Assembly (NCBI GenBank): GCA_002762865.1
Contig: PCYE01000012.1
Span: 879-46,294 of the forward strand
Direction: 5' to 3'
Length of the DNA: 45,416 nt
Source of the DNA: Candidatus Woesearchaeota archaeon CG10_big_fil_rev_8_21_14_0_10_33_12
GTDB taxonomy: Archaea > Nanobdellota > Nanobdellia > Woesearchaeales > CG1-02-33-12
The notes beneath the pieces were generated by a model that worked only from the letters and a program-made list of their open reading frames with translations, was not told the origin of the DNA and made no database searches. The position numbers and the translations under genes were made by a program. Below are positions 14,793-39,365 of this stretch, piece by piece. How positions within the stretch are numbered: the stretch's first letter is position 1; each line of letters opens with the position of its first letter.

Positions 14793-16718
14793 ATGAAATA
14801 CATTAACCTGGTTGAGGTCTACCAAAAGCTTGACTCAACAACAAAGAGACTTGAGAAAACTTATTTTATATCTGAACTATTAAGAAAAACTCCGGTAGAA
14901 GATCTTTCCAGGATAACATTATTATTGCAGGGCAAAATCTTTCCGCCGTGGGATGAGCGCAAGATTGGCGTTGCATCAAGAATGGTTTTAAAGGCAATAA
15001 ATGTTTCATCTGGCTTAAGTGTTAAGGAAATTGAGGATGAGTGGAAAAAAACAGGTGATCTTGGAAAGACAGCTGAAAACCTTATCCAAAAGAAAAAACA
15101 GGCCACTTTATTCTCTAGTGATTTGTCTGTGAGCAAGGTTTTTGATAATTTAAGAAAACTTGCCACCTTAGAAGGCCTTGGCTCTGTTGACCAAAAAGTA
15201 AAATTAATATCTGAGCTGCTTACATCTGCAAAACCTATTGAGGCAAGATACATCGTGAGGAATGTTTTAGAGGACCTAAGGGTGGGCGTTGGAGCTGGCT
15301 CTTTAAGAGATGCAATTGCATGGGCATTTTTTCCAAAAGTTAGTGGAATATTTTTCAAGTGTGATAAATGCAATAACTATATGCCTAATATAACTAAATG
15401 CCTTGAATGCAACGAAGCTATAGAAAACAAGTTCAATAAAGAAATTGAAAAATTTGATGAAAAAAAAGTTCTTAAACTAAAAAGCATTGACGAGCTTAAG
15501 AAAGCAGATATTAAAAAATATGATTTTATCTTATGCAATGATGAGAATTTAGCAAGGGAAGCTTATAATTATTTTGTTAATGCTGTTCAGGGAGCTTATG
15601 ATGTTGCAAATGACTTTTCTGTTGTTGCAGAAAAAGCAAAAGTTGAGGGTATTAAAGGCTTAATGAGTGTTGGCCTTGAGCCTGGAAGGCCTGTAAAGGT
15701 AATGCTAGCCATAAAAGTAAAGGATATAAAAGAAGGATTTGAAAGAGTTGGCAAGCCAGCTGATATTGAGTATAAATTAGATGGCTTCAGGCTGCAAATA
15801 CACAAAAAAGATAATGAAATAAAGCTTTTTACAAGAAGGCTTGAGAATGTCACAAAACAGTTTCCAGATGTTGTTGATTATGTTAAACATAATATTAAAG
15901 GGGATTCTTTTATAATTGACTCAGAGGGAGTCGGCTTCAGCCCAAAAACAAAAAAATATCTTCCATTCCAGAGCATATCCCAGAGAATTAAACGAAAGTA
16001 TGACATTGAGAATATGGCAAAGGAGTTTCCTGTTGAGCTGAATGTTTTTGATGTTATCTATTACAATGGGAAAAACATGATTAAGACACCTTTTATTGAG
16101 AGAAGAAATATTATTGAGAAAATAGTAAAGCCTGCTGAAAGAAAAATTGTTTATGTCAAGAACCTTATAACATCTGATGAGAAGGAAGTTTTAAAGTTTT
16201 ACAAGGAATCTCTTAAGAGAGGAAATGAAGGGATTATGTTTAAGACACTTGACGCTGTTTACAAGCCAGGTGCAAGAGTTGGGCATATGGTGAAGTTCAA
16301 GCCTATTATGGATACCCTTGATTTGGTTATTGTTGGAGCAGAGTGGGGAGAAGGCAAGCGATCTGACTGGCTGAGTTCTTTTACACTTGCATGTATTGAT
16401 GAAAACAATAATTTTCTTGAGATAGGAAAGGTCGGGACAGGCATTAAGGAAAAATCAGAGCTTGGAGTTTCATTCAGCCAGCTTACAGAGGAATTAAAGC
16501 CATTGATAATCTCTGAAAAAGGAAAAAGTGTTATTGTAAAGCCGGAGATTGTTGTAGAAATAAACTATGAAGAAATCCAGAAAAGCCAGACATACAGCTC
16601 AGGATATGCCTTAAGATTTCCGAGATTGATAAATTTAAGGCTGGAAAGGTCTGCTGAGGAATGCAGCACACTAAACATGGTTGAGGAGTTTTATGAAGGC
16701 CAGAGGCACAGGAAATAA
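14793..16718 (+). CDS. lig: ATP-dependent DNA ligase with a Zn-ribbon-containing insertion
   Basis: EYKLDGFR (motif I), FDVIY, EGIMFK, DTLDLVIVG, YALRFPR (motif VI). Confidence 0.97.
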   Translation: MKYINLVEVYQKLDSTTKRLEKTYFISELLRKTPVEDLSRITLLLQGKIFPPWDERKIGVASRMVLKAINVSSGLSVKEIEDEWKKTGDLGKTAENLIQKKKQATLFSSDLSVSKVFDNLRKLATLEGLGSVDQKVKLISELLTSAKPIEARYIVRNVLEDLRVGVGAGSLRDAIAWAFFPKVSGIFFKCDKCNNYMPNITKCLECNEAIENKFNKEIEKFDEKKVLKLKSIDELKKADIKKYDFILCNDENLAREAYNYFVNAVQGAYDVANDFSVVAEKAKVEGIKGLMSVGLEPGRPVKVMLAIKVKDIKEGFERVGKPADIEYKLDGFRLQIHKKDNEIKLFTRRLENVTKQFPDVVDYVKHNIKGDSFIIDSEGVGFSPKTKKYLPFQSISQRIKRKYDIENMAKEFPVELNVFDVIYYNGKNMIKTPFIERRNIIEKIVKPAERKIVYVKNLITSDEKEVLKFYKESLKRGNEGIMFKTLDAVYKPGARVGHMVKFKPIMDTLDLVIVGAEWGEGKRSDWLSSFTLACIDENNNFLEIGKVGTGIKEKSELGVSFSQLTEELKPLIISEKGKSVIVKPEIVVEINYEEIQKSQTYSSGYALRFPRLINLRLERSAEECSTLNMVEEFYEGQRHRK

Positions 16719-16755: not shown

Positions 16756-17736
16756 ATGTTAAAATCAAATCACATAGTTAAAAAACTTGATATAAGATTC
16801 TTCAACAGCATGAAGATTGACTACATTAAAGAAACCTTAACAAAATCAACCCTTCACGATGAGAAACTTAATTCTGAGATAGATTGGTATCTATCATTTC
16901 CATCTCACTTCAGAAGGTATTTTCCTAAGATATTTGATTACAGAAAGGGGTATAATCCATACATAAAAATGGAATTTTACAATTATCCTTCACTTGCAGA
17001 TATTTATTTAAATGATAAGCTTCCACTTGACCAGTGGAAAAAAATATTTTTGGATCTTCATGAAATAGTCAAAAAATTTCAATCTGCAAATAAAAAAATA
17101 ACTGAAAAAGAAAAATTTGAGAGTCTTCTTAGTATGTATTATAAAAAAACAATCAAACGGTTAAAACAGCTGGAAATGCAAAATAGCTGGAATAAAATTT
17201 TATCAAATCCAATTTATATAAATGGAAAAAAATATTTTAAAGATAAAATAAAAAAAGACCTTAAAGATTGTCTACACAAATACTTGCTTAACTTACCAAA
17301 AAGAGATTTTTGCTTGATACACGGGGACTTATGTGCAGGAAATATACTCTTTGATAAATCTAACTTTATATTCGTTGATCCGCGAGGAAAGTTTGGAAAA
17401 TTTGTCATATATGGTGACACATACTATGATATTGCAAAACTATCTCACAGTTTTTTGGGATTTTATGATTTAATAGTTGACTCAAAATATAAACTTGATT
17501 TTAATGATAACCATATAAACTATGAAATACTTGCTTCAGATAAACAAAATAAGATATCGGAAGCATTTAAGGAAGAAATTCTATTTAAGTATGATTACAA
17601 GGAAGTTAGATTAATCGAATCCCTTTTGTTCCTAAGCATGCTTCCATTACATGTTGATGATTTTAAAAGGCAAATTGTGCTTTTTTCAAGGGGTCTGGAA
17701 TTATTTTATAGTGTTAAGGATGGTGGTTATTATTAG
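16756..17736 (+). CDS. APH/choline-kinase-like phosphotransferase (probable sugar kinase)
   Basis: IHGDLCAGNI, FVDPRGKFG, YGDTYYDIAKLSHS, LFLSMLPLH. Confidence 0.85.
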   Translation: MLKSNHIVKKLDIRFFNSMKIDYIKETLTKSTLHDEKLNSEIDWYLSFPSHFRRYFPKIFDYRKGYNPYIKMEFYNYPSLADIYLNDKLPLDQWKKIFLDLHEIVKKFQSANKKITEKEKFESLLSMYYKKTIKRLKQLEMQNSWNKILSNPIYINGKKYFKDKIKKDLKDCLHKYLLNLPKRDFCLIHGDLCAGNILFDKSNFIFVDPRGKFGKFVIYGDTYYDIAKLSHSFLGFYDLIVDSKYKLDFNDNHINYEILASDKQNKISEAFKEEILFKYDYKEVRLIESLLFLSMLPLHVDDFKRQIVLFSRGLELFYSVKDGGYY

Positions 17737-18430
17737 AATTATCATAACTATGGCAGGTGAAGGAATTAGATTCAAAAAAGCAGGCTACCTCATTCCAAAA
17801 CACATGATAAAAATAAAGGACAAAACAATGTTTGAATGGGCTATGCTAACATTAAAGGATTTTTATGGTGAAGAATTTATTTTTGTTACCTTAGAAAAAA
17901 ATAATGATTTGAGTTTCATTAATGAAAAATGCAAATTATTAGGCATAAAAAAAAGAAAGATTGTATCCATAGATAATATAACTTCCGGGCAAGCAGAAAC
18001 TGTTTTGAAAGCAGAAAAAGAAATAAGTTTGGATGAACCCATACTGATTTATAATGTGGATACTTACGTTGAGCCTTATGAATTAAGAAAAACTGATATA
18101 AAGGGGTATGGCTTTGTTCCGTGTTTTAAGGCAAATGGAACCCACTGGAGTTTTGTAAAATTTGATTCAAATAAAAGAATTTTTGATATTACAGAAAAAG
18201 TAAGGATATCTGAATATGCGTCTATAGGGCTTTATTATTTTTGCAGTTTTTCCTTATTCAAGAAATGTTTTGGTAAATATTATTCGCAGGAATCTAAAGA
18301 AAAATATATTGCCCCTATTTACAATATTCTAATAAAAGATAACAAAGAGGTGTATACTTCAATCTTAGATAGCAAAAAAGTCCATATTTTAGGGACTCCA
18401 GAAGAGGTGAAATCATTTGAGGAGAAATAA
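17720..18430 (+). CDS. Sugar-phosphate nucleotidyltransferase
   Basis: ITMAGEGIRFKKAGYLIPKHMI, TSGQAETV, IYNVD, EKVRISEYASIGLYYF, LGTPEE. Confidence 0.85.
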   Translation: MVVIIRIIITMAGEGIRFKKAGYLIPKHMIKIKDKTMFEWAMLTLKDFYGEEFIFVTLEKNNDLSFINEKCKLLGIKKRKIVSIDNITSGQAETVLKAEKEISLDEPILIYNVDTYVEPYELRKTDIKGYGFVPCFKANGTHWSFVKFDSNKRIFDITEKVRISEYASIGLYYFCSFSLFKKCFGKYYSQESKEKYIAPIYNILIKDNKEVYTSILDSKKVHILGTPEEVKSFEEK

Positions 18431-19160
18431 GTCAGATAATATCCTTGTTTTTGTGCCTGGTTATAATGTTGAAAACACAATTGAAAAAGTTTTTTTTGGT
18501 TTAATGAAAACAAAGAAAGAATTGAATTTTGACATTTTGTTTATTGACAACAGAAGCAAGGATAATACATTCGAAAAACTAAAAGAATTAGTAGAAAACA
18601 AAAAACAAAAAGGGATAAAACTGGTCAGAAACTCCAAAAATTTAGGTTATGGTGGCTCACAAAAGGTTGCATTTGGGTATGCATTCAGGAAAAAATATGA
18701 CTATCTTATTGAGTATGATGGGGATATGCAATATCCAGTTGCAAATATCCTTGATTTATATGCAAAAATAAAAAAAACAAAGTTAGGTATTGTTTTTGGC
18801 TCAAGAGTCACAACCAAAGAAAATATATCTCAGATGCCCTTTTGGAAGGCTTTTGGGAACAAATTTTTTAACATGCTAAACAAATGGGCATTAGGCATTA
18901 AAGTTTCTGAGATACATACTGGTTTTAGAATTTACAACCTCAAGAATATTAAAGGGTTTAATTTTAATAGGTGCCATAATGATTATAGGTGGACAATAGA
19001 TAGTGTTGTGGAGATACTAAAAATAAATAAGAATTTATCTGAAATACCTACAAAGGCTTTATACACTAAATATTCAAGTGCCCCAAGTTTCAAGCAGTTG
19101 TTTAAGACAATGGTGTATATGTTTTTTAGGGCACTGGAATACAAATTCTTAAGACTATGA
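18417..19160 (+). CDS. GT2 glycosyltransferase (polyprenol-phosphate glycosyltransferase-like)
   Basis: VPGYNVE, IDNRSKDNT, NLGYGGSQK, DGDMQY, FGSR, HTGFRIY. Confidence 0.9.
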   Translation: MRRNKSDNILVFVPGYNVENTIEKVFFGLMKTKKELNFDILFIDNRSKDNTFEKLKELVENKKQKGIKLVRNSKNLGYGGSQKVAFGYAFRKKYDYLIEYDGDMQYPVANILDLYAKIKKTKLGIVFGSRVTTKENISQMPFWKAFGNKFFNMLNKWALGIKVSEIHTGFRIYNLKNIKGFNFNRCHNDYRWTIDSVVEILKINKNLSEIPTKALYTKYSSAPSFKQLFKTMVYMFFRALEYKFLRL

Positions 19161-20747
19161 CTTTTCTTTTTCCTTAATTAAATATAAATCCCTAGGGTCA
19201 TATTTTGGTGGAGGAAGGTGGTCTATAATAGTGTAATGGCTCATGTTGAAATTCTGGATTCTTGATGTAAGAATGTAATCTGCTGTTTTAATATCATCAG
19301 TTATAGTATATGCAAATCTTGGATTTATGTTGGTTAATCTGGTTAGGTTTAAATCATTATATCTTATGAGAGCATCACATCTATAATTGTAATGTAATGG
19401 ATCATCTAAATGTTCTGTATCAATGTATACTTTGGATCCTTGTTCCACATTTATTATTAATTCTGAAGTGAAAGAGAAATATGTGGGGGTATAATCATTT
19501 GGATTTTGCATATTTTTTGCAATTTGCAGAAAATTAAACAAAAACAATAAGCTGATGATAAATAAGAGGATATGGTTACCATATTTTCTGAATAATCTCT
19601 TGCAGATTACATAAATAAAATCATAAAACAAATAAAAATAAATCAAGTAAAACATTGTGACATATCTAAACTCAAAGTGATGGCCTTTGATGTTATAGAA
19701 AAAAAAGAAGAATATATCTGAGAATATAAACATCAAAACCCAAAATTTATTTTTTTTACTAATTATATTATAAATTAAAATAAGGTATAATGCTAATGAT
19801 ATCCATATTGAATTAAACTTATGTAGGAACAAATAATTTTTAAAAGTGCCTTCTCTAATGTTTTTTAAAAAATAATTTGAAATTGATTTCATTGTAAATC
19901 CAAAATCCCTTACTTCAAAATTACCTCCAGCACCCTGATCAATATCAGACATTAATCGGTTACCTCTTAATCCTGTGGATATTGTAAAATATATTAAAAA
20001 ACCAATTAAAAATATTATCCATATTTTTTTTAAGTAAGACCATTTTTCTTTTTTATAAAAATAGTAGTAGAATGTAAGGAAAATCAAAAGTATTGGAATT
20101 ATCAAGTAACTTATATTTTTTGTAAAAAATAAAAGAGAAACCAAAAGTGTAAGTGAGATGTTATTCTTCTTATGGTTTTTATCAAACTCATATAAGTATA
20201 TAAGAAATATTGAAAAAACAAGCATATATGTCAAATCAATATAAAAAGAGAGAAGCGTCTCAAGAAAGAATTTGCTTCCCAGTACAAGTAAAATTAGTGT
20301 AAAAGCCTTGAATGGTTTTTCTATTTTCAAAAGAGTTCTAAATAAGATTATCAAAAGAAACATGTTTATAAAATAATTTGAGAAGTTGAAAGTAAGTGTG
20401 GTAGATGTAAACAAAAGGAAAAAGGGAATTCTACCCAAAATAATCAATTTATCAGCATAGGTAAGTAAAAATAGTTGATAGAAATCTTTAAACTCTAAAT
20501 TCCTTATTTTTTCAGTTAATATTACAGATGAAGTATAATATTCATAATAATGGATTCCAGTGAAGTTAGAAGGCATTCTTTTTATTGCATTAAAATAGAA
20601 AAAAGACAGAAGAATGATTAAAAATATAAGGATTACATAGAAAATGATTATCTTAGAATTTGGTTTTTTAAAATTATATTTTATTTTGTTGGTTTTGTTT
20701 TTCCCTCCTTTTTTGGTTGATTTGTACATAAGGTATAATTTTATCAA
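19155..20747 (-). CDS. Polytopic membrane protein, probable GT-C fold glycosyltransferase
   Basis: About 10 or more hydrophobic segments, FYIDL, FFTKN, EFRY motifs, soluble C-terminus; start may be ATG 20729. Confidence 0.65.
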   Translation of the reverse strand: MIKLYLMYKSTKKGGKNKTNKIKYNFKKPNSKIIIFYVILIFLIILLSFFYFNAIKRMPSNFTGIHYYEYYTSSVILTEKIRNLEFKDFYQLFLLTYADKLIILGRIPFFLLFTSTTLTFNFSNYFINMFLLIILFRTLLKIEKPFKAFTLILLVLGSKFFLETLLSFYIDLTYMLVFSIFLIYLYEFDKNHKKNNISLTLLVSLLFFTKNISYLIIPILLIFLTFYYYFYKKEKWSYLKKIWIIFLIGFLIYFTISTGLRGNRLMSDIDQGAGGNFEVRDFGFTMKSISNYFLKNIREGTFKNYLFLHKFNSIWISLALYLILIYNIISKKNKFWVLMFIFSDIFFFFFYNIKGHHFEFRYVTMFYLIYFYLFYDFIYVICKRLFRKYGNHILLFIISLLFLFNFLQIAKNMQNPNDYTPTYFSFTSELIINVEQGSKVYIDTEHLDDPLHYNYRCDALIRYNDLNLTRLTNINPRFAYTITDDIKTADYILTSRIQNFNMSHYTIIDHLPPPKYDPRDLYLIKEKEKS

Positions 20748-20808: not shown

Positions 20809-20850
20809 AAATACAAAAAGCCCAACTTACAGCTTCGGATATGCATTAAG
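20809..20850 (+). pseudogene. Relic of a DNA ligase 3' segment (IQKSPTYSFGYALR)
   Basis: 34 of 43 aligned columns identical to lig 16573-16615; one gap; several differences at synonymous third positions. Confidence 0.8.
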
Positions 20851-21034
20851 GTAAACTATTTAAACCTTTTGTCCTTAAACAGATTAGGAATTCTCAAAAA
20901 TTAATTTCAGATGGAAATAAGTAAATTTTTCTCAACAAAAATCTTAAAATTATCGCCGGGAGATTTCTAAAATAGAAAGGTTAATAAGCAAGTTTATACA
21001 TTAACGATTAACCAAATTCGAAGAGGTGCATTGG

Positions 21035-21070
21035 ATGGCAAAAAAGAAAGCAGCTAAGAAAAAGAAATAA
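21035..21070 (+). CDS. 11-aa lysine-rich micropeptide MAKKKAAKKKK
   Basis: SD GAGGTG 21023-21028, TATA-like TTTATACA 20993-21000, T-rich tract at about 21095-21120. Confidence 0.55.
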   Translation: MAKKKAAKKKK

Positions 21071-21114
21071 ATTCATAAAATTCAAATAAAATCATTTATT
21101 TTTTTATTTTTATT

Positions 21115-22446: not shown

Positions 22447-23346
22447 ATGGAAAATCTAAAAAAAATTGAGCAAGCCTTTGATGTGTTGAGCATTGTAGGA
22501 AAAACTCCTATGATTAAAATAAGAAAAATACATGCAAAGCTCGAGACAACAAACCCAAGCGGAAGTGTAAAAGACCGCATGGCTGATTACATGGTAAAAA
22601 AAGCAGAGCAAAGAGGTGAGCTAAAGAAAGGCAGCAGGATAATTGAGGTTACAAGCGGCAATACTGGAATAGCTTTTTCAATGATCTCAGCAATAAAGGG
22701 CTATAAGTTTACAGCAGTAATGCCAGAGCATATGAGCGTAGAAAGAATAAAGATGATAAAAGCATTTGGGGCTGATGTTGTATTAACCCCAAAAAAGGAG
22801 GATATGAATGGAGCAATTAGGAAATACAATGAGCTTGTGAGGAAATATCCTAATGCATGGCTTCCAAACCAGTTTGAGAATCAGGACAACATAGAGGCTC
22901 ATGAACTTGGATTGGGAAAAGAGATAATAGCTCAGTTCAAGGGCAGGATAGATGCATTTGTTGCAGGAATCGGAACAGGCGGGACTTTGCTTGGTGTTGC
23001 AAGGGCACTTAAAAAAGAATTTCCTAATGCAAAAATAATTGGTGTTGAGCCAGCTGAATCAGCTGTTTTATCAGGAGGGAAACCAGGCATGCATAAGATA
23101 CAGGGAATCGGCGAGGGCTTTATTCCAAAGCTTGTTAAGGACAACATGAATATGATTGATGAGGTTATTGCAATAAAAAGCAGCGATGCTATCAATATGA
23201 GAAAAAAACTTGCAGAAGAGAATGGAATATTTGTTGGAATAAGCTCAGGAGCAAATCTGCTGGCAGCAATTAAAGCAAGGGAAAGATATGAGAATGTGAT
23301 TACTGTCCTGCCAGACAGAGGAGAGAGATATTTAAGTGGAAATTAA
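22447..23346 (+). CDS. cysK: Cysteine synthase (O-acetylserine sulfhydrylase family)
   Basis: KLETTNPSGSVKDR (PLP Lys), TSGNTG, GIGTGGT, HKIQGIG, GISSGA, PDRGERYLS; GAGGT SD. Confidence 0.93.
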   Translation: MENLKKIEQAFDVLSIVGKTPMIKIRKIHAKLETTNPSGSVKDRMADYMVKKAEQRGELKKGSRIIEVTSGNTGIAFSMISAIKGYKFTAVMPEHMSVERIKMIKAFGADVVLTPKKEDMNGAIRKYNELVRKYPNAWLPNQFENQDNIEAHELGLGKEIIAQFKGRIDAFVAGIGTGGTLLGVARALKKEFPNAKIIGVEPAESAVLSGGKPGMHKIQGIGEGFIPKLVKDNMNMIDEVIAIKSSDAINMRKKLAEENGIFVGISSGANLLAAIKARERYENVITVLPDRGERYLSGN

Positions 23347-23909
23347 ATATCTTCTGAAACCATTTTATATAAATTAATTTTTAATTCCTCTTTTTTTATT
23401 ATTTCCAGCTTGGCCTTTGTTGCCGGATGTCCCGGAACAAAAAGGCATTTTTTGTTTTCTGATAATTCATAGGTGTTTATTTTTTTTGCAATATTAATTA
23501 TTTCATTCTTGTCAAAGCATAGCAATGGCCTTAAAACATTTGTTTTTATTGATTCATCAAGAACAGCAAGATTATCTAATGTCTGGGAAGCGACCTGGCC
23601 GAGGTTTTCTCCTGTTACTATGAATTCTGCTTTTTCTTTTTTGGCAAGGTTTTCAGCAATCCTGTACATGACTCTTTTGCACAGCAAACATGTGTATTTT
23701 GGGTTTGTATTGTTTTTTATTTGGGTGAGAATTTCTTTGTGGTTAATATAATGGACTTTTTTTATTCCAAGCTTTTTGGCTATTTTATCAACTGCATTGT
23801 GGTTGTCCATAAAGAAGTTGAGGCCAATCAGTTCAAGGCCCTTCTCTTCCATTAAACAAGCTGCAACAGGGCTGTCTATGCCTGGGCTGAGGAGTATTAT
23901 TGCTTTCAT
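23343..23909 (-). CDS. ThiI-like PP-loop sulfurtransferase catalytic domain (no THUMP domain)
   Basis: LLSPGIDSPVA, CLLCKRVM, TGENLGQVASQTLDNL, LRPLLCFDKNEI, HPATKA. Confidence 0.85.
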   Translation of the reverse strand: MKAIILLSPGIDSPVAACLMEEKGLELIGLNFFMDNHNAVDKIAKKLGIKKVHYINHKEILTQIKNNTNPKYTCLLCKRVMYRIAENLAKKEKAEFIVTGENLGQVASQTLDNLAVLDESIKTNVLRPLLCFDKNEIINIAKKINTYELSENKKCLFVPGHPATKAKLEIIKKEELKINLYKMVSEDI

Positions 23910-23967
23910 GTGTTAGTAGGATATTGGTTAGTATAAAAAGGTTTTGAGAATTAATTAGAATATTAAT

Positions 23968-24007
23968 TATTGTTATTATTAATAAGTAGTTAAAAATAGA
24001 AAGATTT
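23968..24007 (+). repeat. 40-bp promoter-containing direct repeat, copy 1
   Basis: TATTGTTATTATTAATAAGTAGTTAAAAATAGAAAGATTT; 38/40 identical to 25146-25185. Confidence 0.85.
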
Positions 24008-24035
24008 ATATACTAATTAATGATACAAACCATTT

Positions 24036-25043
24036 ATGGGACCAAATCATGAGTATTCTATAAAGGAATTAAAAACACCTTTCGGAAATGGAATAGAAGT
24101 ATCTGAAAAAGGTAGTAGGGATTATTACCAACAAATCAAATCCAATGATGGTTTAATAGCAAGAATATTTTCAACTGAAGAAAATCATAAGAGACTTGGA
24201 AATAAATGTATAAGTGTTATATCCAAATATCCATTTAAAGATAATAAGGAAAATCATTTATTATTTAGGGAATTAACGGGCAAATTAAATAAAATACAAG
24301 ATGAAACAATTAATAGTGGGTCTTGGCCCTTAAAAATATACACAGATCAGGGACTTGAAAAAAAATTAGGTAATGGAACAACTATAAGAATAAATAAAGA
24401 AGACAAAAAAGAATTCCCTAAGGAAGCTTATAATTTTGTAGATGGAGTTGGTTACTTTACAGGGAATGTTGCTCATGCTAGTTCTTTTATGATATATTTA
24501 ACTACACTTGGTCTTTCTATTGGACATTTATTAGCAAACACAACAGTAAGTAATTGGTTATGGCATGCACCACTTTATACGGCAACCACTATCTTTAGTT
24601 TGTTTGGTGAATTAGATTATATGATTACAAAAGAGTGCATTAAAGATATGGGTGATACCAAACCTAGTGTTGGAGTAACATATTGGATAGCTCATACAAT
24701 AGGAGTTAAACTTGCAACAAGTAATTTTGAGGAAAGGTTAAGAAAAAAAGATTATGCTTTAAAAAAATTTTTGTTATCTCATAAATCTGCGAAACGAGCA
24801 ATTAGTGATAATCATATGGGATATGTCTATTTTAAGGATGAGAAATGGGCCGATAGGAGGGAGAAATGGAATCGTGAGCATAGAGATGATGTTTATGAAG
24901 CACTTACAAAGATGTTTGAATTTACGCCATACCAAAGGGGATTTTCAATTACTACTGAACACAAAGATAAAGCAAATGCATTAAGATTCTTAGACTCTCT
25001 TTTAACAGATAAAAAAGAAACTCCTCAAATAAGTCTTACATAA
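24036..25043 (+). CDS. Hypothetical protein with central hydrophobic segments
   Basis: 335-aa ORF, BRE-TATA about 25 nt upstream; no family recognised. Confidence 0.75.
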   Translation: MGPNHEYSIKELKTPFGNGIEVSEKGSRDYYQQIKSNDGLIARIFSTEENHKRLGNKCISVISKYPFKDNKENHLLFRELTGKLNKIQDETINSGSWPLKIYTDQGLEKKLGNGTTIRINKEDKKEFPKEAYNFVDGVGYFTGNVAHASSFMIYLTTLGLSIGHLLANTTVSNWLWHAPLYTATTIFSLFGELDYMITKECIKDMGDTKPSVGVTYWIAHTIGVKLATSNFEERLRKKDYALKKFLLSHKSAKRAISDNHMGYVYFKDEKWADRREKWNREHRDDVYEALTKMFEFTPYQRGFSITTEHKDKANALRFLDSLLTDKKETPQISLT

Positions 25044-25072
25044 TTAATTATTTCTCTTTCTAAAAATTTGAT

Positions 25073-25129
25073 TTATTTTTTCTTTGCAGTCAGTTTATTG
25101 GCTGCAAGGCAGATGCAAAGTAAAATGAA
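25073..25129 (-). pseudogene. Relic 3' end of the 27533..28081 membrane protein gene (FILLCICLAANKLTAKKK*)
   Basis: 45/57 nt and 15/18 aa identical to 27533-27589, stop codon included; 9 of 12 differences are in synonymous codons. Confidence 0.9.
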
Positions 25130-25145
25130 TAAAATAAAAGATTGA

Positions 25146-25185
25146 TATTGTTGTTATCAATAAGTAGTTAAAAATAGAAAGATTT
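25146..25185 (+). repeat. 40-bp promoter-containing direct repeat, copy 2
   Basis: TATTGTTGTTATCAATAAGTAGTTAAAAATAGAAAGATTT. Confidence 0.85.
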
Positions 25186-25212
25186 TTAAAGTGAGTGGTT
25201 TTTCTATATTTT

Positions 25213-25707
25213 ATGAATAAATTATCCTTATTATTAGTGGGTCCAAGATACTCGCACTCTTTAGGTGAAATAGTTAGAACATCTATTGCGGCGGGAGTTG
25301 TAGAAAGAACATACATAGAGGACAGTAGGAAGATATTTCAAGATGATCATGAAAATCAAATACAAAGATTTTCTGCTGGATATAGTGATTTTCGAGAGAT
25401 AGTTCTAATAAAAGATAGCCTGGAATTCTTAGATGTTAATAAAGGCAATTATCGCAGGATTGCAACAGTGATTGGTCCCGCTGCGGAAAATTTGTTTGAA
25501 TTTAAGTATATGGAAAATGATCTTTTGGTTTTAGGAGAGGAAAGAAAAGGATTAGATGACAAAGTCATAGCTGCTTGTGATACAACTTTAACTATTCCTC
25601 AAGTAGTAAATAAATATAAATGCTACACACTTTGCTCTGCAGTAGCAATGTTTCTTTATGAGAAAATGAGGCAAGCTTATGAAGGGATTCCCCATTCAAT
25701 GCAGTGA
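25213..25707 (+). CDS. SPOUT (TrmH/TrmL-like) RNA methyltransferase
   Basis: PRYSHSLGEIVRT, LLVLGEERKGL, TLTIP, TLCSAVAMFLYE. Confidence 0.8.
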   Translation: MNKLSLLLVGPRYSHSLGEIVRTSIAAGVVERTYIEDSRKIFQDDHENQIQRFSAGYSDFREIVLIKDSLEFLDVNKGNYRRIATVIGPAAENLFEFKYMENDLLVLGEERKGLDDKVIAACDTTLTIPQVVNKYKCYTLCSAVAMFLYEKMRQAYEGIPHSMQ

Positions 25708-25964
25708 ATGGTGTCCATTACTTCTTTTTTTGGTGATTCATAAGGTGGTTTGCCAAGAAATTCGTTTGGAGAATAATACCATTCTACATAGTTATCTTCC
25801 TTAATAACTCCTTCCATTGCATCCTTTATATCTTTAGGTATCTGATTAAGAAGTGAATTATATTTATTAAGTACACCCTGTTCAGCTTCTGAAATACAAG
25901 ATCTGGGTTTATCAAGCAGTTTCTTATGTTGTTTTAATATATGTTCAATATCTTCCTTTTCCAT
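25677..25964 (-). CDS. Protein with Xre/MbcA/ParS antitoxin C-terminal-like motif
   Basis: EWYYSPNEFLGKPP...EVMDTIHCIEWG matches the W..PN..LG..P...V...L..IE.G pattern. Confidence 0.6.
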   Translation of the reverse strand: MEKEDIEHILKQHKKLLDKPRSCISEAEQGVLNKYNSLLNQIPKDIKDAMEGVIKEDNYVEWYYSPNEFLGKPPYESPKKEVMDTIHCIEWGIPS

Positions 25965-26022
25965 AATAATAAAATAGATTTAATTATTTATTAATGTTTC
26001 TTTTTTGTGGTTATACAACCAA

Positions 26023-26058
26023 GAGATCAGCACGCCTATGCAGATGAGCCTTGCCAAT
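26023..26058 (-). pseudogene. Possible older relic homologous to the 27533..28081 gene (IGxLICIGVLIS vs IGGLVRIGVLIT)
   Basis: 24/36 aligned columns identical to 27597-27631, with one indel. Confidence 0.4.
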
Positions 26059-26164
26059 TAGAACAAAGGATTAACCTTCCTTTCCAGAAGTATCTACTGA
26101 AGAATAGATAATTTTATAAACTTCTTTATTCCATTATCTTAATTATTAATTGGAGGTAATAAAA

Positions 26165-26491
26165 ATGACTCAGGTGAAATTAGAAGATTTAAAAAAGCAG
26201 GGGATAAACGAAGGATGTCTAGTTGAGATAATACTCAAGGAGGGAGCAAAGCCAAATTTACGGACAACGGCTTTAGTTAGTTACTATGGCCCTGAAGTGG
26301 ATACTGGAAGACCATCAACAGTAAATTATTCTGGATATATTAAGTGTATTAAGATAGAAAAAGATCAAGAAGTGATTGCGTTATTCCATGGATGGGATAA
26401 TCAAAATAAACAAATTCCTCAAGATGCCCGCATAGGGGGTGTTTATATTTACTTAGATGCTATATACTCCTGCGTAAAACCAAAAAAGTAA
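26165..26491 (+). CDS. Hypothetical protein
   Basis: GGAGGT SD before ATG 26165. Confidence 0.7.
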   Translation: MTQVKLEDLKKQGINEGCLVEIILKEGAKPNLRTTALVSYYGPEVDTGRPSTVNYSGYIKCIKIEKDQEVIALFHGWDNQNKQIPQDARIGGVYIYLDAIYSCVKPKK

Positions 26492-26525
26492 ATTTTTGAT
26501 TATTATTTTTTAATTTATATTATGT

Positions 26526-26951
26526 TTAGTCAATCTTTTCTTTAACTATTTCTTTTAGTTTATTAATAAGTTTTAATATATCTTCTAATTTTCTTTGAAT
26601 ATAGGTTTCTTCAACAAAAAATCCATTATAGGATATTTTATTTCTCGTTATTCTTAAACTGTCTATTAAAGATATTTCATAACTATTAAACTGTTTATAG
26701 TTTTCTTCTAAATAACCTATTAATCTTCTGTGGGCTCCTTCACCAAATGTTTTATAGCCATCTAATAAAAGAATAATGGTCATTAGTTCCCTTATAATTT
26801 CATAATATTCCTTAGTTACATTTGATGCAAATTTAGTTATGTCTATCTGCTTAACCATTTCAAGGCTGGTTTCCACCATTTTTAAAATAGATTTTGCCTT
26901 TTCCTTGTTTGGAGTTATCCTGATCAAGTTTTCTTTCATCTTGTTTTTCAA
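26526..26951 (-). CDS. HEPN-domain protein (toxin of a HEPN-MNT pair)
   Basis: Helical protein directly downstream of the MNT; GEGAH and RITRNKISYNG (R-x4-Y in place of R-x4-H). Confidence 0.75.
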   Translation of the reverse strand: MKNKMKENLIRITPNKEKAKSILKMVETSLEMVKQIDITKFASNVTKEYYEIIRELMTIILLLDGYKTFGEGAHRRLIGYLEENYKQFNSYEISLIDSLRITRNKISYNGFFVEETYIQRKLEDILKLINKLKEIVKEKID

Positions 26952-27489
26952 ATTTGCATTTGAGATACCCCACTAACATATCTCCATTGATGATATTTGT
27001 TTTTAATTCCTGGCTCAGATTATCAAAATTGCTTTCAAAGAACAAGCTTACCCTTCTTTTTAACTTTTTCTCGAATTTATCCGGAGATATTTTCTTTTCT
27101 TCGGATTGCAAATATAAATCAACATCGCTTTCTTTGATATCCTCTCCTTTTGAAGCAGAACCAAACAAGATTATTGCATCTGGCATGCACTTTTCATTAA
27201 GATAATCCAAAAGCCCGGATTCTTTTATTTTTCTTTGAATATCAATTTTTTTCAAGAATTTGAAATAATCATTGTCTCTATTTGCATAATAAACCGGGTA
27301 TTTGTGTATTCTATGCTCTTTTTTAACTATAAGCTTCTCTTTTTCAAGTTTTTCTAAATAGAGTTTAACAGATTTTGGAGCTAATTTTATCTTCCTGCTT
27401 ATCTCCCTTAATTGAAATCCTATGCCCTGTGGCAAGGGATCATCAAAAAATACTTCCAAAACCCTATACAGATTATCTTTTCTTAACAT
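26860..27489 (-). CDS. HTH + minimal nucleotidyltransferase (MNT antitoxin)
   Basis: N-terminal LREISRKIKLAPKSVKLYL HTH; ILFGSASKGEDIKESDVDL. Confidence 0.9.
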   Translation of the reverse strand: MLRKDNLYRVLEVFFDDPLPQGIGFQLREISRKIKLAPKSVKLYLEKLEKEKLIVKKEHRIHKYPVYYANRDNDYFKFLKKIDIQRKIKESGLLDYLNEKCMPDAIILFGSASKGEDIKESDVDLYLQSEEKKISPDKFEKKLKRRVSLFFESNFDNLSQELKTNIINGDMLVGYLKCKFEKQDERKLDQDNSKQGKGKIYFKNGGNQP

Positions 27490-27490
27490 A

Positions 27491-27508
27491 TGTAATAAGA
27501 TTATTACA
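27491..27508. promoter_or_regulatory. Palindromic operator candidate for the MNT-HEPN operon
   Basis: TGTAATAA-GA-TTATTACA between the TATA box and the ATG at 27489. Confidence 0.6.
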
Positions 27509-27532
27509 ACTGTTATATAAATATTACGTTTT

Positions 27533-28081
27533 TTACTTTTTCTTCGCAGTCAGCTTATTGGCTACTAAACAAATGCATAATGAAGTGAATGGAATTGTGA
27601 TTAAAACACCTATTCTGACAAGGCCGCCAATGCTGTTTAGCACTGCAATCAAAATCATGAGCACTGCTGAAAAAGCAAAGTTCTTTTTTGCTATTTCATA
27701 GCTTCTCTCCAAAGAGCTGATTGCCCCTTTTTTCTCAAGTATTGCAAATACAGCTGCATACTGGAACATTACCATCAAGAGCAGTCCAGGGATTACCAAT
27801 AAAGCAAGTCCAACAGCTATTGTAAGAAAAGCCACAATAAACAATCCCCAGCTTGTAAAGAAATAATCAAAGCCCCTGAAAATATCAGAAATCTGTGCTT
27901 TCTTTCCTTTTGCTGCATTTATGCACATGAAATAAATCCCAAAAACCAAAGGAGGGATTGTAATTATAAATACCATTCCTAAAAGAGCAACCAGTGTTCC
28001 AAGAATAAGGGTCACATATTGCTTCTTGAAAATATTAAAAGATTTTGTTACAATCTCATTAATCATATCTTCCATACTCAT
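27533..28081 (-). CDS. Integral membrane protein (DUF975-like)
   Basis: Several TM helices; ISDIFRGFDYF, LLVIPG, AISSLERSY; AGGTGA SD. Confidence 0.8.
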   Translation of the reverse strand: MSMEDMINEIVTKSFNIFKKQYVTLILGTLVALLGMVFIITIPPLVFGIYFMCINAAKGKKAQISDIFRGFDYFFTSWGLFIVAFLTIAVGLALLVIPGLLLMVMFQYAAVFAILEKKGAISSLERSYEIAKKNFAFSAVLMILIAVLNSIGGLVRIGVLITIPFTSLCICLVANKLTAKKK

Positions 28082-28176: not shown

Positions 28177-29199
28177 ATGGTATTGTATATTTACTCAAAT
28201 GTTACTGGAAGTTTTGTTTTCAACACAGGCTTCAGGATAATTGACCAGGCTTTGTTTGACGAGAAAGATACAGTCAATAATGCAATAAAGCTAAACAATA
28301 ATGAATGGCTTGAGGAGGAAAAGGCCTTAATAAAAAAGCACGGCCATAAGATAATATTCTTAGGTAAGAAAAAAACTGAACTAAATGGAATAGAATTATC
28401 CCCTGAAGATAAATTTGAAATAATAAATGAAAGGATATCTGAAATTCCTAATTTTTACCAGCTTATGAGAAAAGCAGGAATAACAATAACAAGAAACAAA
28501 ATAAAAAACTCAGTAAAGTCTGACACACTTGTAATCCAAGCAATAAGCAATATTGACGAGCTTGATAGGGTTGCAAACACTTTAGTAAAAAGATTAAGGG
28601 AGTGGTATGAGCTTTACCTGCCAGAGTTTTCGAAACAATTAAGAAACAATGAAAAGTTTGTTGAATTAATACTTAAAAATAAGAAAAGCGAGCTTCTAAA
28701 AGAAATCAATATAAGCAGCAAGAAAAGCATGGGTGCAAACCTTGCTGAAGCTGATATAAAGCCAATAGAAGAACTGGCAAAAAGAATTTCTTCATTATAC
28801 GACCTGAGAGAATCACAGTCAGATTATCTTGAATTAATAATAAAAAAAACATACCCTAATATGTATGCAATAACTGGCTCACAGATAGGAGCAAAATTAA
28901 TCAGCTTTGCAGGAAGTTTTGAAAGGCTTGCAAAATTTCCTGCCTCAACAATACAATTGTTGGGAGCAGAAGAAGCATTGTTCAGGCATCTGAAAACCGG
29001 TGCAAAATCGCCAAAATATGGAATACTGCACGAGCATCCGCTTGTAACCCAAGCAAGAGCATCTGAAAGAGGAAAAGTAGCAAGGGCATTAGGTGATAAG
29101 ATTTCAATAGCTGTAAAAGTTGATTTTTTCAAGGGAAAATTCATTGGAGAAAAACTAAGAAATGATTTAGAGAAAAAATTCATTAAAAAGAAAAAATGA
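28177..29199 (+). CDS. nop5: Box C/D sRNP protein Nop5 (Nop56/58)
   Basis: RLREWYELYLPE, PASTIQLLGAEEALFRHL, SPKYG, RGKVARAL. Confidence 0.95.
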   Translation: MVLYIYSNVTGSFVFNTGFRIIDQALFDEKDTVNNAIKLNNNEWLEEEKALIKKHGHKIIFLGKKKTELNGIELSPEDKFEIINERISEIPNFYQLMRKAGITITRNKIKNSVKSDTLVIQAISNIDELDRVANTLVKRLREWYELYLPEFSKQLRNNEKFVELILKNKKSELLKEINISSKKSMGANLAEADIKPIEELAKRISSLYDLRESQSDYLELIIKKTYPNMYAITGSQIGAKLISFAGSFERLAKFPASTIQLLGAEEALFRHLKTGAKSPKYGILHEHPLVTQARASERGKVARALGDKISIAVKVDFFKGKFIGEKLRNDLEKKFIKKKK

Positions 29200-29873
29200 T
29201 AATGCAGCCAACAAGGTTTCATGGAATTTATGAAACCATAAAAGGAAAGAAAAGATTATTATTAACAATAAACCTCTCTCCAGGAAAAAAAGTATATGAT
29301 GAAATCTTGATAAGAGATCAGGGTGTTGAATACCGCACATGGAATCCAAAAAAAAGCAAATTAGCAGCAGCAATAATGAAAGGAGCATCCCAGATAGGGA
29401 TTAAACCCTCAAGCATAGTGCTTTACCTTGGCTGTGCATCCGGAACAACTGCATCCCATGTTTCTGATATTGTCGGAAAAAACGGCTTTGTGTTTGCGCT
29501 TGATTTTGCTCCAAGAGTAATGAGGGAAATGGTTTTTGTATGTGAAGCAAGACAGAACATAATGCCAATAATGGCAGATGCAAACAATACTGAAAGCTTT
29601 GAGAAATATATAACAATGGTTGATGTTATCTTTCAGGATATTGCTCAGAAACAGCAGGCAGAGATATTCCTTAAAAACACCAGGAAATTCCTAAAACCAG
29701 GCGGCTTTGCTCTTTTAAGTGTCAAGGCAAGAAGCATTGATGTTGCAAAAAAGCCAAAAAAGGTTTTTGAGGAAATAAGAAGAAAGCTTGAGAATGAGCT
29801 TACAATAGTTGATTACAGGACACTTGAGCCTTTTGAATTAGATCACTGCATGTTCATATGCAAAAAGAAATAA
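29196..29873 (+). CDS. flpA: Fibrillarin-like rRNA/tRNA 2'-O-methyltransferase
   Basis: YRTWNPKKSKLAAAI, VLYLGCASGTTASHVSD, KARSID, LEPFELDH. Confidence 0.97.
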   Translation: MIMQPTRFHGIYETIKGKKRLLLTINLSPGKKVYDEILIRDQGVEYRTWNPKKSKLAAAIMKGASQIGIKPSSIVLYLGCASGTTASHVSDIVGKNGFVFALDFAPRVMREMVFVCEARQNIMPIMADANNTESFEKYITMVDVIFQDIAQKQQAEIFLKNTRKFLKPGGFALLSVKARSIDVAKKPKKVFEEIRRKLENELTIVDYRTLEPFELDHCMFICKKK

Positions 29874-35841: not shown

Positions 35842-35994
35842 ATGGGAGTAGAACACGAATCTGCTAAAAGAATCTTAACTAACGAAAAATGTCCTAAATG
35901 TGGAAGTAGACTGTATAAATCACGATTTTACAAAGCGACAATTATTGAGTGTAGTAAATCTACTTGTGGATATGAAAAAACGTTAAAATTTTAA
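35842..35994 (+). CDS. 50-aa zinc-ribbon protein
   Basis: CPKCGSRL...CSKSTCGY; TATA-like TTTATAA about 25 nt upstream of ATG 35842. Confidence 0.7.
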   Translation: MGVEHESAKRILTNEKCPKCGSRLYKSRFYKATIIECSKSTCGYEKTLKF

Positions 35995-36245
35995 TTTTGG
36001 ACTGCTTTTTGCAGTAAGTCTTTCCATAAATCACTTTCTTGAATTTTTGCTCTTTGTGCTGGTGTCATCTTTAATTCTTGATGTTGCCTTACAAAATTGT
36101 AATAAGTCTTAAAGTTCTCTGCATACTGTTTTTGATTTCCCTTAAATCCCCTCATAGTCTTATCCTTTTGCCTAAAGCTTTCATAGAAGCGTTCTATTAC
36201 ACTATTGTTGCTATCATGCTGTCTTAAACTGACATACTTATAATG
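35991..36245 (-). pseudogene. C-terminal fragment of a DDE (IS6-like) transposase
   Basis: NNSVIERF...RQKDKTMRGFK...YYNFVRQHQELKMTPAQRA; the N-terminal and D-D regions are absent. Confidence 0.85.
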
Positions 36246-36340
36246 AGGATTGGGATTTTTTAAAACGAAAGATTTATAAGTAGCATACTTATAAGCTTTA
36301 AAGTAATATACTTTTATGAATAAAAATAGCATACTTATAA
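36233..36340 (+). promoter_or_regulatory. Repeated CATACTTATAA boxes (candidate operators)
   Basis: CATACTTATAA at 36233, 36284 and 36330; the last two extend to TAGCATACTTATAA (36281-36294, 36327-36340). Confidence 0.55.
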
Positions 36341-36341
36341 A

Positions 36342-36512
36342 ATGCCATCTGACAAACGAATTGCAGGTTATCTTTCTGAAGAAGATTATGGATTATTCAA
36401 AACCGCACTCAAAAAATATGATGTTGGAGAATCAGGATTGATTCAAGAAATTGTTCACGCTTGGCTGTTTGCCAATAAACTACAGCTCAATCAAAAAAAT
36501 AAAAAAGTCTAA
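36342..36512 (+). CDS. 56-aa ribbon-helix-helix-like regulator MPSDKRIAGYLSEEDYGLFKTALKKYDVGESGLIQEIVHAWLFANKLQLNQKNKKV
   Basis: Beta-strand/helix/helix pattern; ends 14 nt before the methyltransferase; not in the ORF track. Confidence 0.7.
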   Translation: MPSDKRIAGYLSEEDYGLFKTALKKYDVGESGLIQEIVHAWLFANKLQLNQKNKKV

Positions 36513-36526
36513 ACAAAAGGATTACT

Positions 36527-38281: not shown

Positions 38282-38285
38282 TACA

Positions 38286-39365
38286 ATGGGATACCGTTAT
38301 ATTGGAGCAAAGACCAAAATTAGCAATGAGATTATATCAGAAATCTCTAAGATTGTGCCTAGTGGTGGAAAGATAGCAGACATCATGTGCGGAACTGGAG
38401 TGATTTCTCTTGAACTTAGAAAAAAAGGATACGAAGTTATAGCTTCTGATGTTATGTACCAAGCGTGCCATATCACTAAAGTTAAGGTTCTGCTTCAGCA
38501 AGCACCGCCATTCAATGGAGCAAAAAAATATTTCTCCAAGAAAGGGCAACTGTTGCTAACTGGGTATTCTGGATATGAAGCAATAATTCAAGCACTTAAT
38601 AATTTACATCCGTTCAAAGGATATTTTTGGAGGGAATTTAGCCCAGAAGGAAAACCAAAAAATGGTTCTGCACCACGAAGATACTTTACAGCAGAAAACG
38701 CACAAAAAATTGATTCTGCGAGGGCATTTATCAAAAAGCTAAAAGAAGAAAATGCTATTACTAACATTGAGTATTCCTTGCTTGTCCATGATTTAATCTT
38801 TGCGGTAAATGACGTAGCCAATATTGCAGGAACGTATGGTCACTACCTTTCAAAATTTGTTGAAAGGGCAAAACAGCTAATAAGATTTACACCAACAAAG
38901 TTTGAAAATGGTGGAATCACAGAAGGGCATAAAATATTTCAAGGACATGCTGAAGAACTGGTAATTAATATGCAAGCCGACCTTTGTTATATTGACCCAC
39001 CGTACATAAAAAGACAATATGGAGCAAATTATCATATACTTGAAACTATTGCTAAAGGAGACGAACCTACAGCAGAAGGAAAAAGTGGTTTAAGACCATG
39101 GAGAGATGAATATTCTGATTTTTGCTCTAAAGTAAAGATTCGTAGTGCTTTTGAAAAAATATTTAATGGTATGAAATGCAAAAATTTCTTAATAAGTTAT
39201 AGCTCAGATGGGTTACTATCAAAAAAACAACTGATGGAACTTTTTGAAAAGTTCGGCACAGTTATTGTTAAAGAATTTTCCCATAAGAGATTCAAAAGCA
39301 GAAATGAAGATGCCGATGAAAACGTTACAGAATATCTTTTTTTTCTGAAGAAGACTAACTCTTAG
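38286..39365 (+). CDS. DNA adenine methyltransferase, alpha class (D12/FokI-like)
   Basis: RYIGAK, ADIMCGTG, YIDPPY..RQYGANYHILET, LISYS. Confidence 0.92.
   Translation: MGYRYIGAKTKISNEIISEISKIVPSGGKIADIMCGTGVISLELRKKGYEVIASDVMYQACHITKVKVLLQQAPPFNGAKKYFSKKGQLLLTGYSGYEAIIQALNNLHPFKGYFWREFSPEGKPKNGSAPRRYFTAENAQKIDSARAFIKKLKEENAITNIEYSLLVHDLIFAVNDVANIAGTYGHYLSKFVERAKQLIRFTPTKFENGGITEGHKIFQGHAEELVINMQADLCYIDPPYIKRQYGANYHILETIAKGDEPTAEGKSGLRPWRDEYSDFCSKVKIRSAFEKIFNGMKCKNFLISYSSDGLLSKKQLMELFEKFGTVIVKEFSHKRFKSRNEDADENVTEYLFFLKKTNS

Follow-up and report, generated by a model that had tools for sequence, protein, structure and literature searches.

The window analysed here is a stretch of 45,416 nt (positions 879 to 46294 of contig C40) from a Woesearchaeota archaeon, whose genome, denoted G000, is a metagenome-assembled genome (MAG) of 1.05 Mb in 53 contigs with 33% G+C. 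The stretch was recovered from groundwater and aquifer metagenome runs, and it encodes archaeal Nop56, fibrillarin and Nre proteins. The subject of the analysis is the gene mem, which encodes a membrane protein, together with the accessory genes that are stacked behind it and two displaced copies of its 3' end, designated relic A and relic B. Read in the orientation of mem, the order is Nop56 (opposite strand), mem, an MNT-HEPN-type gene pair, orf113 (opposite strand), relic A, orf95 and a SPOUT gene, relic B with 29 nt of native spacer, X335 (opposite strand) and ThiI (Table 1). Window proteins were compared with the Pfam, NCBIfam, PADLOC and PHROGs libraries. Codes such as G003 to G009 denote related genomes; L010 is contig C7 of G008, L012 is contig C14 of G004, and L026 to L033 are metagenome contigs.

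The MNT-HEPN cassette begins directly after the mem stop codon and is present without duplication of the gene end. An initial annotation, made from the DNA letters alone, had named this pair HEPN-MNT. The MNT assignment was confirmed by Pfam; the partner gave no Pfam match but corresponded to PADLOC family PDC-M05B. The SPOUT methylase was likewise recognised (Pfam SpoU_methylase, E = 2.6e-19), its TrmL/TrmH-type matches in NCBIfam being weak and far below the cut-off. No support was found in any of the four libraries for the description of orf95 (25677-25964) as antitoxin-like. The gene that had been called an orphan, orf113, indeed belonged to no family, but homologues with 72 to 75% identity were present in G004, L030 and L031. 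The position of X335 is occupied by another gene, of 186 aa, in G008 and G004.

Table 1. Features of the mem and ligase loci, in window coordinates.
Feature	Position	Strand	Basis
mem, intact anchor gene, 182-aa membrane protein	27533..28081	-	Open reading frame; likeness to YciC/UPF0259/DUF7847 weak, Pfam and NCBIfam scores below cut-off
Working 3' end of mem, about 101 nt including the stop; the copy repeated by the relics	27533..27633	-	Alignments
Relic A, presumably the older-generation mem 3' end; spans about -101 to a degenerate stop and lacks about 30 nt in its interior	25991..26058	-	Aligned to intact relics of L030 and G004
Relic B, presumably the oldest mem 3' end, last 63 nt including the stop	25073..25135	-	49/63 identical to working end
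MNT-HEPN-type cassette (MNT 26860-27489; partner 26526-26951)	26524..27532	-	Pfam Polbeta/NTP_transf_2; PADLOC PDC-M05A, PDC-M05B
orf113 cassette (gene 26150-26491, no family)	26059..26509	+	81.6% nt identity to G004 over 26509-26032
orf95/SPOUT cassette (orf95 25677-25964; SPOUT/SpoU-type RNA methyltransferase 25195-25707)	25136..25990	orf95 -, SPOUT +	
Native spacer retained behind relic B	25044..25072	.	blastn to G008, G004
X335, convergent neighbour, no family, outside the relic-bounded island	24036..25043	+	
ThiI, conserved far neighbour	23343..23909	-	
ATP-dependent DNA ligase, anchor	14793..16718	+	Pfam DNA_ligase_A_N, _M, _C
Four-gene insert: APH-like kinase, NTP transferase, GT2 glycosyltransferase, 530-aa protein	16756..20747	.	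Pfam
Decayed relic of ligase 3' end, then native downstream flank	20815..20920 (approx.)	+	tblastn 10/12 aa at 20816-20851; alignment with relatives

Positions 25073-25129 had been described as a diverged copy of the last 57 nt of mem (27533-27589), and 45 of the 57 bases were found to be identical. Both copies lie on the minus strand and are terminated by a stop codon, and the peptides that they encode, FILLCICLAANKLTAKKK in relic B and FTSLCICLVANKLTAKKK at the end of mem, share 15 of 18 residues. The runner-up ungapped match of this 57-mer within the window had 32 identical positions. In 300 dinucleotide-preserving shuffles of the whole window, scored on both strands, the maximum was 36 and a value of 45 was never reached. 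The repeat of the mem 3' end is far beyond chance. Local alignment extended the match to 63 nt (78% identity), with a longest exact run, as read from the alignment, of about 9 nt. Among 11 changed codons seven changes were synonymous and four were nonsynonymous, so the earlier wording, mostly synonymous, was roughly right. Beyond the stop codon the flanks of relic B and mem diverged, with agreement at between 4 of 10 and 15 of 40 positions.

A weaker homologous fragment had been proposed at 26023-26058. Taken alone it was feeble: as originally placed against mem it was out of register, with 9 of 36 positions identical without gaps, and a count by hand gave about 19 of 26 to 27 with one gap. 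The fragment is nevertheless the 5' part of a real second relic, relic A. An intact counterpart of about 101 nt stands beside orf113 in G004 (L012:6026-6126) and in L030 (2988-3080), and the layout of L031 matches the arrangement of relic A and orf113 as far as the contig end. The possibility that the SPOUT cassette divided a single 101-nt relic into what appear as relics A and B was rejected: L030 has a complete relic followed by the region upstream of orf95, and relic A is therefore separate from relic B. In agreement with the serial insertion that had been suggested, the two relics are of unequal length, starting about 63 and 101 nt before the end of the gene, and each is trailed by the sequence that was downstream of it at the time.

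Fragments of this kind might be remnants of deleted tandem mem paralogues that had nothing to do with the arrival of the cassettes. Tandem paralogues with a truncated third copy do exist elsewhere in this genome, at locus C28; of mem itself, however, there is one copy in G000 and in each of the relatives examined, and orthologues of mem adjoin Nop56 in G003, G005, G008 and the eight metagenome contigs L026 to L033. In six related contigs (L009, L026, L028, L032, L033 and L035) the site is empty: mem and ThiI are adjacent, about 70 nt apart, and there is no second copy of mem. Relic B, moreover, bears the native downstream spacer of the single-copy gene. Window positions 25130-25042 match G008 (L010:3810-3896) and G004 (L012:6077-6154) by blastn, and in these genomes the matching spacer stands behind the mem end or a mem relic. 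The relics always contain a stop codon, lie on the same strand as the gene and are found at cassette boundaries, and an origin from lost paralogues is very improbable.

Several parts of the island were also recovered in relatives. The junction between orf113 and relic A is common to G000, G004 and L030; orf113 occurs with mem and a relic in L030 and with mem in L031, and the region upstream of orf95 also stands behind the relic in L030. In G004 a 1011-nt MNT-HEPN unit with 84% identity lies directly upstream of ThiI. In L036, where mem is merely 65% identical, an MNT gene that is 92% identical at the amino acid level (89% nt) starts three bases past the mem stop codon, and in L029 just a decayed piece of the HEPN partner remains between mem and ThiI. 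A candidate 5' relic of ThiI upstream of MNT-HEPN in G004 (L012 6817-6856) was too weak to use: it has a 21-nt exact match to ThiI of G000, with a local score of 23 (shuffle maximum 19) against 13 for the ThiI gene of G004 itself. Loose contig ends show orf113 in further contexts, and a contig of the X9 and X12 metagenome runs jumps from 26512 back to position 26107, the join containing 13 other letters (depths 18.7 and 7.1); this join could represent a tandem or circular orf113 unit in a co-occurring strain.

A second case in the window, behind the ATP-dependent DNA ligase gene, had been cited in the initial annotation and proved to be real. Behind the four-gene insert lies a decayed relic that copies the last 135 nt or so of the ligase gene, and the flank behind the relic matches the flank that follows the ligase gene in relatives. 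The distance from the ligase end to the end of a DHH gene is 193 to 232 nt in L009, L010, L028 and L032, and none of the four insert genes had a match in the seven related loci searched. The relic is closest to the L032 allele and the working ligase end to the G008 allele. This relic escaped both of the genome-wide scans described below as well as a blastn search with 210 nt, and came to light only when the full-length protein served as query and relatives were then aligned, which indicates that the scans undercount decayed relics. A tiny frame, MAKKKAAKKKK, at about 21045-21080 is conserved with its flanks downstream of the ligase gene in G000, G008, L028 and L032. In G004 (L012 14232-15569) the interval from the ligase end to the DHH end is 1.3 kb, compared with about 200 nt in the other relatives; this spot may hold a different insert.

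Recurrence across the genome was assessed by searching for the last, first and middle 90 nt of every gene within 10 kb on its own contig, with a cut-off of at least 50 bits. The last-90-nt queries gave 15 matches, 10 of them non-genic, and all 10 were on the same strand as the gene and downstream of it. By comparison, the first-90-nt queries gave 13 matches (2 non-genic) and the middle queries gave 9 (1 non-genic). A protein version of the scan agreed with the nucleotide scan. One match, at C22, was an overlooked small paralogue rather than a relic, and its removal left nine relics at seven loci (C12, C16, C18, C28, C40, C52 and C7), in addition to the separately found ligase relic. Six of these seven loci and the ligase locus are free of N; the relic at C16, where the cargo is AbiEi/AbiEii, abuts a 69-N gap and was kept apart. 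The ligase gene and five further gap-free loci thus bear the same type of scar as mem, with a strong bias to 3' ends, the same strand and the downstream side, and the claimed recurrence was upheld. In a closed 0.77-Mb genome of the same order, gene ends gave zero non-genic matches.

The cargo at these loci often consists of toxin-antitoxin (TA) genes or candidate defence genes. At C12 there are two relics, one behind MNT-HepT and the other behind a gene of unknown function and ParE, and also a third fragment. The cargo is an 83-aa gene at C18, a PDC-S01 ATPase at C52 and GH3 at C7, where the anchor is the end of a radical SAM (rSAM) gene; C28 is a relic locus with the tandem paralogues mentioned above, and C40 is the mem locus itself. 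The repeated unit is single-copy in five of nine genus genomes for C7/GH3, in seven of nine for C18 and in G002 for C28. For C12 and C52 the contigs of relatives were too fragmented to reveal a clean empty site; the C12 junction between ParE and the relic recurs in G007 and G009.

Repeat lengths ranged from 36 to 146 nt over the nine pairs, and all nine, together with relic A, exceeded the 30 bp used to define long direct repeats. The length also varied for one and the same gene, with starts at -63 and -101 at mem and at -56 and -81 at C12, and behind each of these two intact genes lies a row of 3' fragments that differ in length. At C12 the ends of the HepT and ParE frames overlap with the relics, and two junctions cut cassette frames. 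Inspection by eye of ten junctions revealed no common motif; the join positions are scattered, and any microhomology is indistinguishable from the start of the repeat. An element resembling AAAACGAAACATTTAAATA occurs after the stop codons of several anchor genes, at the head of cassettes (C12:1713-1742, C52 after 2371, window 27500-27532). It was considered as a junction motif and dropped, as a 30-nt version with about 90% identity is present at numerous unrelated sites in every genome of the genus; it is probably an ordinary common promoter.

Apparent relics might also arise when sequences of coexisting strains are assembled into chimeras, and the groundwater metagenome used here is rich in strains. 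The unitigs break exactly at relic edges (25124-25153, 26101-26130 and 27573-27602), where co-occurring strains branch, and the C16 relic adjoins a gap. One apparent duplication in a relative was such an artefact: in G008 the mem end seems to be repeated (L010 3697-3796), but the repeat consists of identical 55-nt ends around a 100-N scaffold gap and was not counted. Since scaffold-gap ends can mimic a gene-end duplication, relic scans of scaffolded MAGs need gap masking. At the mem locus, however, contigs from other runs gave 100% matches over 24907-26130 (X12), 26101-27602 (X9), and 23300-25153 and 25124-27602 (X2). The X12 contig, from a run that was not flagged as a source of the genome, is free of mismatches from the end of X335 through relic B, SPOUT and orf95 to relic A, and the X9 and X2 contigs span orf113 to the mem end. 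In the X9 and X12 runs a co-occurring relative at similar depth lacks the island, its diverged X335 region being connected to the mem end (24951 to 27533). The presence of the relic A junction in G000, G004 and L030 means that it is not a product of the G000 assembly, and the C12 junction in two other genomes and the N-free state of most loci argue in the same direction. An assembly origin of the relics is scarcely credible.

The differences between working ends and relics were examined for what they reveal of their origin. If a staggered break had been filled in around an inserted fragment, the two copies of the target would have been identical at first and the relic would have drifted in place. 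This class of event is documented, in the portions of Furuta et al. 2010 (PMC2853133) that describe it, for bacterial restriction-modification units, which lack mobility genes and whose repeats often lie over a stop or start codon. Working ends and relics are 78 to 96% identical, and the younger pairs (C12 relic 1, C52 and C7) reach 95 to 96%. Over four loci, 12 changes were unique to relics and 5 to working copies, as decay predicts. However, working end and relic disagree at 37 sites of these loci, and at 20 of the 37 both states segregate among relatives, whereas in-place duplication followed by random change gave a null expectation of 7.5 ± 2.3, and 20 was reached in none of 2000 simulations. 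In a true duplication both repeats stem from the resident target, and neither this excess nor the 78% identity of mem and relic B agrees with that. Since working ends and relics differ chiefly at positions that are variable in relatives, they represent different alleles and not in-situ duplicates, which points to recombination with related DNA. Furthermore, the working end and the relic resemble different relatives at the ligase and C18 loci, derived states at C7 sit in the working rSAM end and not in the relic, and the cassettes are at ordinary inter-species divergence. In-place duplication is accordingly regarded as quite unlikely.

The working mem gene is itself a mosaic. Compared with G005 it has zero mismatches over nt 1-198 and 31 over nt 199-549, with a break near nt 199-300 such as an anchor tract would produce; mem alleles, however, are mosaic generally (for example, L027 equals G000 over nt 138-331). 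Together with the segregating sites, this mosaic bears out the earlier proposal of gain from relatives. Recombination among these species appears to be frequent. At the Nop56/fibrillarin boundary (28850-29300), 450 nt are 100% identical to G005, and the flanking genes are at about 83 to 87%.

Integrative elements that target gene 3' ends and bring a replacement end with them are well known, examples being e14 in icd and SGI1 in trmE. As at mem, their target gene stays intact, a displaced partial copy lies at the far end, and tandem accretion is possible. These elements have their own integrase and one fixed attachment (att) site, whereas here there is no cassette integrase, the targets are many and the repeats vary. 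The description of the route as integrase-free applies only in cis: no recombinase or transposase domain was detected by Pfam in any cassette gene scanned, but the genome encodes five tyrosine recombinases that could act in trans. These Phage_integrase-family genes are located at C46:15300, C38:495, C19:1557, C43:14969 and C43:17838, and three of them, with open frames of 279 to 293 aa, appear Xer-like.

Integrase-less satellites, comparable to cis-mobilisable elements, could therefore accrete at gene-end att sites through a tyrosine recombinase acting in trans, in which case the relics would be attL and attR. The Xer-sized genes, the clean two-sided repeat and single-copy empty sites at the GH3 locus, and the identical left junction of MNT-HEPN in two distant lineages are in keeping with this. 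Set against it, no recombinase lies in or beside a cassette, at least seven unrelated target genes would require as many specificities, and both repeat length and boundary differ between events at one gene (mem and C12). The longest stretch of exact identity that relic B has with the working end is too short to leave an identical core, and the junctions are free of a motif by eye, two of them cutting cassette reading frames. On this evidence a recombinase in trans is an unlikely agent.

The reading that we favour, and consider probable, is that the relics are scars of homology-anchored insertion without an integrase of the insert's own, in which an old gene end was displaced by a new one. The allelic differences, the mosaic working mem gene and the pattern of relic decay favour a related lineage as the source of an imported gene end with its cargo. 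In this scheme, DNA of a related lineage carrying the 3' part of mem and accessory genes would recombine into the resident mem gene. The incoming end would keep mem intact, and the resident gene's terminal part, between the join and the stop codon, would be displaced downstream of the new genes and decay there. At least two such rounds would have taken place behind mem: the older would have brought orf95 and SPOUT and left relic B, and a later one would have brought orf113 and left relic A. The MNT-HEPN pair may have been added as a third unit directly after the stop codon, without duplication. Host homologous recombination would provide one crossover in the common gene, with no need for a dedicated integrase. 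The second join may be an illegitimate end join of linear DNA, that is, homology-facilitated illegitimate recombination (HFIR); alternatively, no second join would be needed if the donor were a circle with a short gene-end arm that popped in. HFIR, the example given in the initial annotation, fits the data, but the circle fits as well, and better at the GH3 locus. The data themselves show the relics, the empty sites, the recurrence and the allelic nature of the two copies; the order of events, which is read from the layout, the form of the donor DNA and the lack of a recombinase in trans are what we infer. Addictive or defensive cargo, such as TA or candidate defence genes, would help rare insertions to persist.

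Several observations weigh against this favoured interpretation. The GH3 locus has a two-sided direct repeat of about 92 to 97 nt across two convergent gene ends, which has the appearance of paired att sites or of a genuine target duplication and is not what a single HFIR event yields. The MNT-HEPN unit starts within 3 nt of the mem stop codon in two lineages whose mem genes are 65% identical, and this coincidence of left junctions hints at some site preference. The genome does carry five tyrosine recombinases, all on other contigs. The polymorphism test could be inflated if changes in the working copy were confined to tolerated sites. Differences were distributed 15/13/29 over the three codon positions, a third-position excess; third positions nevertheless account for only 51% of the differences, and the changed codons divide into 20 synonymous and 28 nonsynonymous, which indicates that much of the divergence is relic decay and not allelic. 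The closed control genome differs from G000 in G+C (42% versus 33%) and in lineage. As to the material, the MAG is fragmentary, with 63 N runs among its contigs, the links at unitig breaks rest on 30-nt overlaps and other assemblies, and the gene set is a crude one of 1140 longest-open-reading-frame calls. Practical limits are thus set by a MAG from a strain-rich community and by a mechanism that is deduced.

The scar type itself is known; here it is found in an archaeon, with allelic copies, serial stacking and several loci in one genome. The nearest named class is insertion with long target duplication, described for bacterial restriction-modification units by Nobusato et al. 2000, as cited in Furuta et al. 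2010 (PMC2853133). The portions of the latter paper that treat these units show the same small inserts without mobility genes, direct repeats of tens to hundreds of bp that are single-copy at the empty site, repeats often over a stop or start codon, an intact target gene and addictive cargo. According to the same portions, no archaeal case survived the screen, and the tabulated repeats are nearly identical (for example 417/423). In contrast, the host here is an archaeon, the copies are different alleles and the events are stacked serially. The cargo also differs from restriction-modification units, comprising TA pairs, candidate defence genes, a SPOUT methylase, GH3, glycosylation genes and unknowns.

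Displacement of gene ends is also described in the sections of Jackson et al. 2009 (PMC2935791) on Rhs C-terminal tips, where a circle is proposed to be excised and re-inserted by homologous recombination in the common core, and the old end to be shunted downstream. As at mem, successive insertions leave an intact gene with strings of detached 3' fragments, unequal in length, behind it. The incoming Rhs tips are non-homologous toxin domains, in the cited sections, and the protein is varied, whereas mem receives an ordinary allele of the end that it already has. Unlike Rhs, the anchors here are everyday genes (for a membrane protein, a ligase, a radical SAM enzyme and others), and the payload consists of separate genes between the new and old ends. 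In Vibrio cholerae, effector-immunity modules of type VI secretion (T6SS) are displaced sequentially, and HFIR is named as the likely route in the relevant part of Kirchberger et al. 2017 (PMC5361080). Those arrays, as described in that part, resemble the present loci in that successive insertions are anchored in conserved upstream sequence, the old effector 3' end is pushed downstream and no integrase is seen. They differ in being confined to one toxin-immunity locus of a naturally competent bacterium, with orphan immunity genes, whereas unrelated cassettes lie behind housekeeping genes here.

A 2026 paper on TA islets (PMC13617665) has them spread by homologous recombination at both flanking core genes; in the portion of the text concerned, relics and the terms 'illegitimate' and 'direct repeat' are unmentioned. 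Such islets, small TA-only islands between core genes without mobile-element genes, are like the duplication-free MNT-HEPN pair between mem and ThiI. As set out in that portion, the TA-islet model requires two homologous flanks and leaves no relic, whereas relics are present here. Within the literature searched, there was no account of a displaced-gene-end scar in DPANN archaea or with TA cargo.

The entry of small TA and defence modules without a mobile-element enzyme is still poorly explained, and long target duplication, in the parts of Furuta et al. 2010 (PMC2853133) that treat it, has neither an established mechanism nor an archaeal example. The present scar occurs at seven or eight loci of a 1-Mb genome, with empty sites in relatives. 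Relics offer a cheap marker, readable from sequence only, with which insertion events could be counted in uncultivated lineages and stacked insertions dated. A bolder and rather doubtful extension is that TA and defence cassettes are integrase-less units with a homing arm of 50 to 150 nt taken from a host gene end. Such units would pop out as circles between the working end and the relic and pop into relatives through the arm by host recombination, in small-genome groundwater archaea and perhaps in CPR bacteria. If this were true, relic stacks would be the visible record of a main route of accessory-gene gain in these lineages.

Two further features of the window were recorded. At the ThiI/CysK boundary (23343-23346), CysK abuts ThiI in G000, while in L009, L010, L026, L028, L032, L033 and L035 at least an NrdR homologue directly follows ThiI. 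The full block of NrdR, NrdD, NrdG, kinase and dCMP-deaminase genes follows ThiI in L009 and L010, and G000 has a divergent Nrd cluster, 43 to 69% identical at the amino acid level, on contig C12. Finally, the region 35991-39365 contains a short fragment resembling an rve_3 integrase core, with a Pfam score below the cut-off, that adjoins Eco57I/TaqI-type and Dam-type methylase genes.

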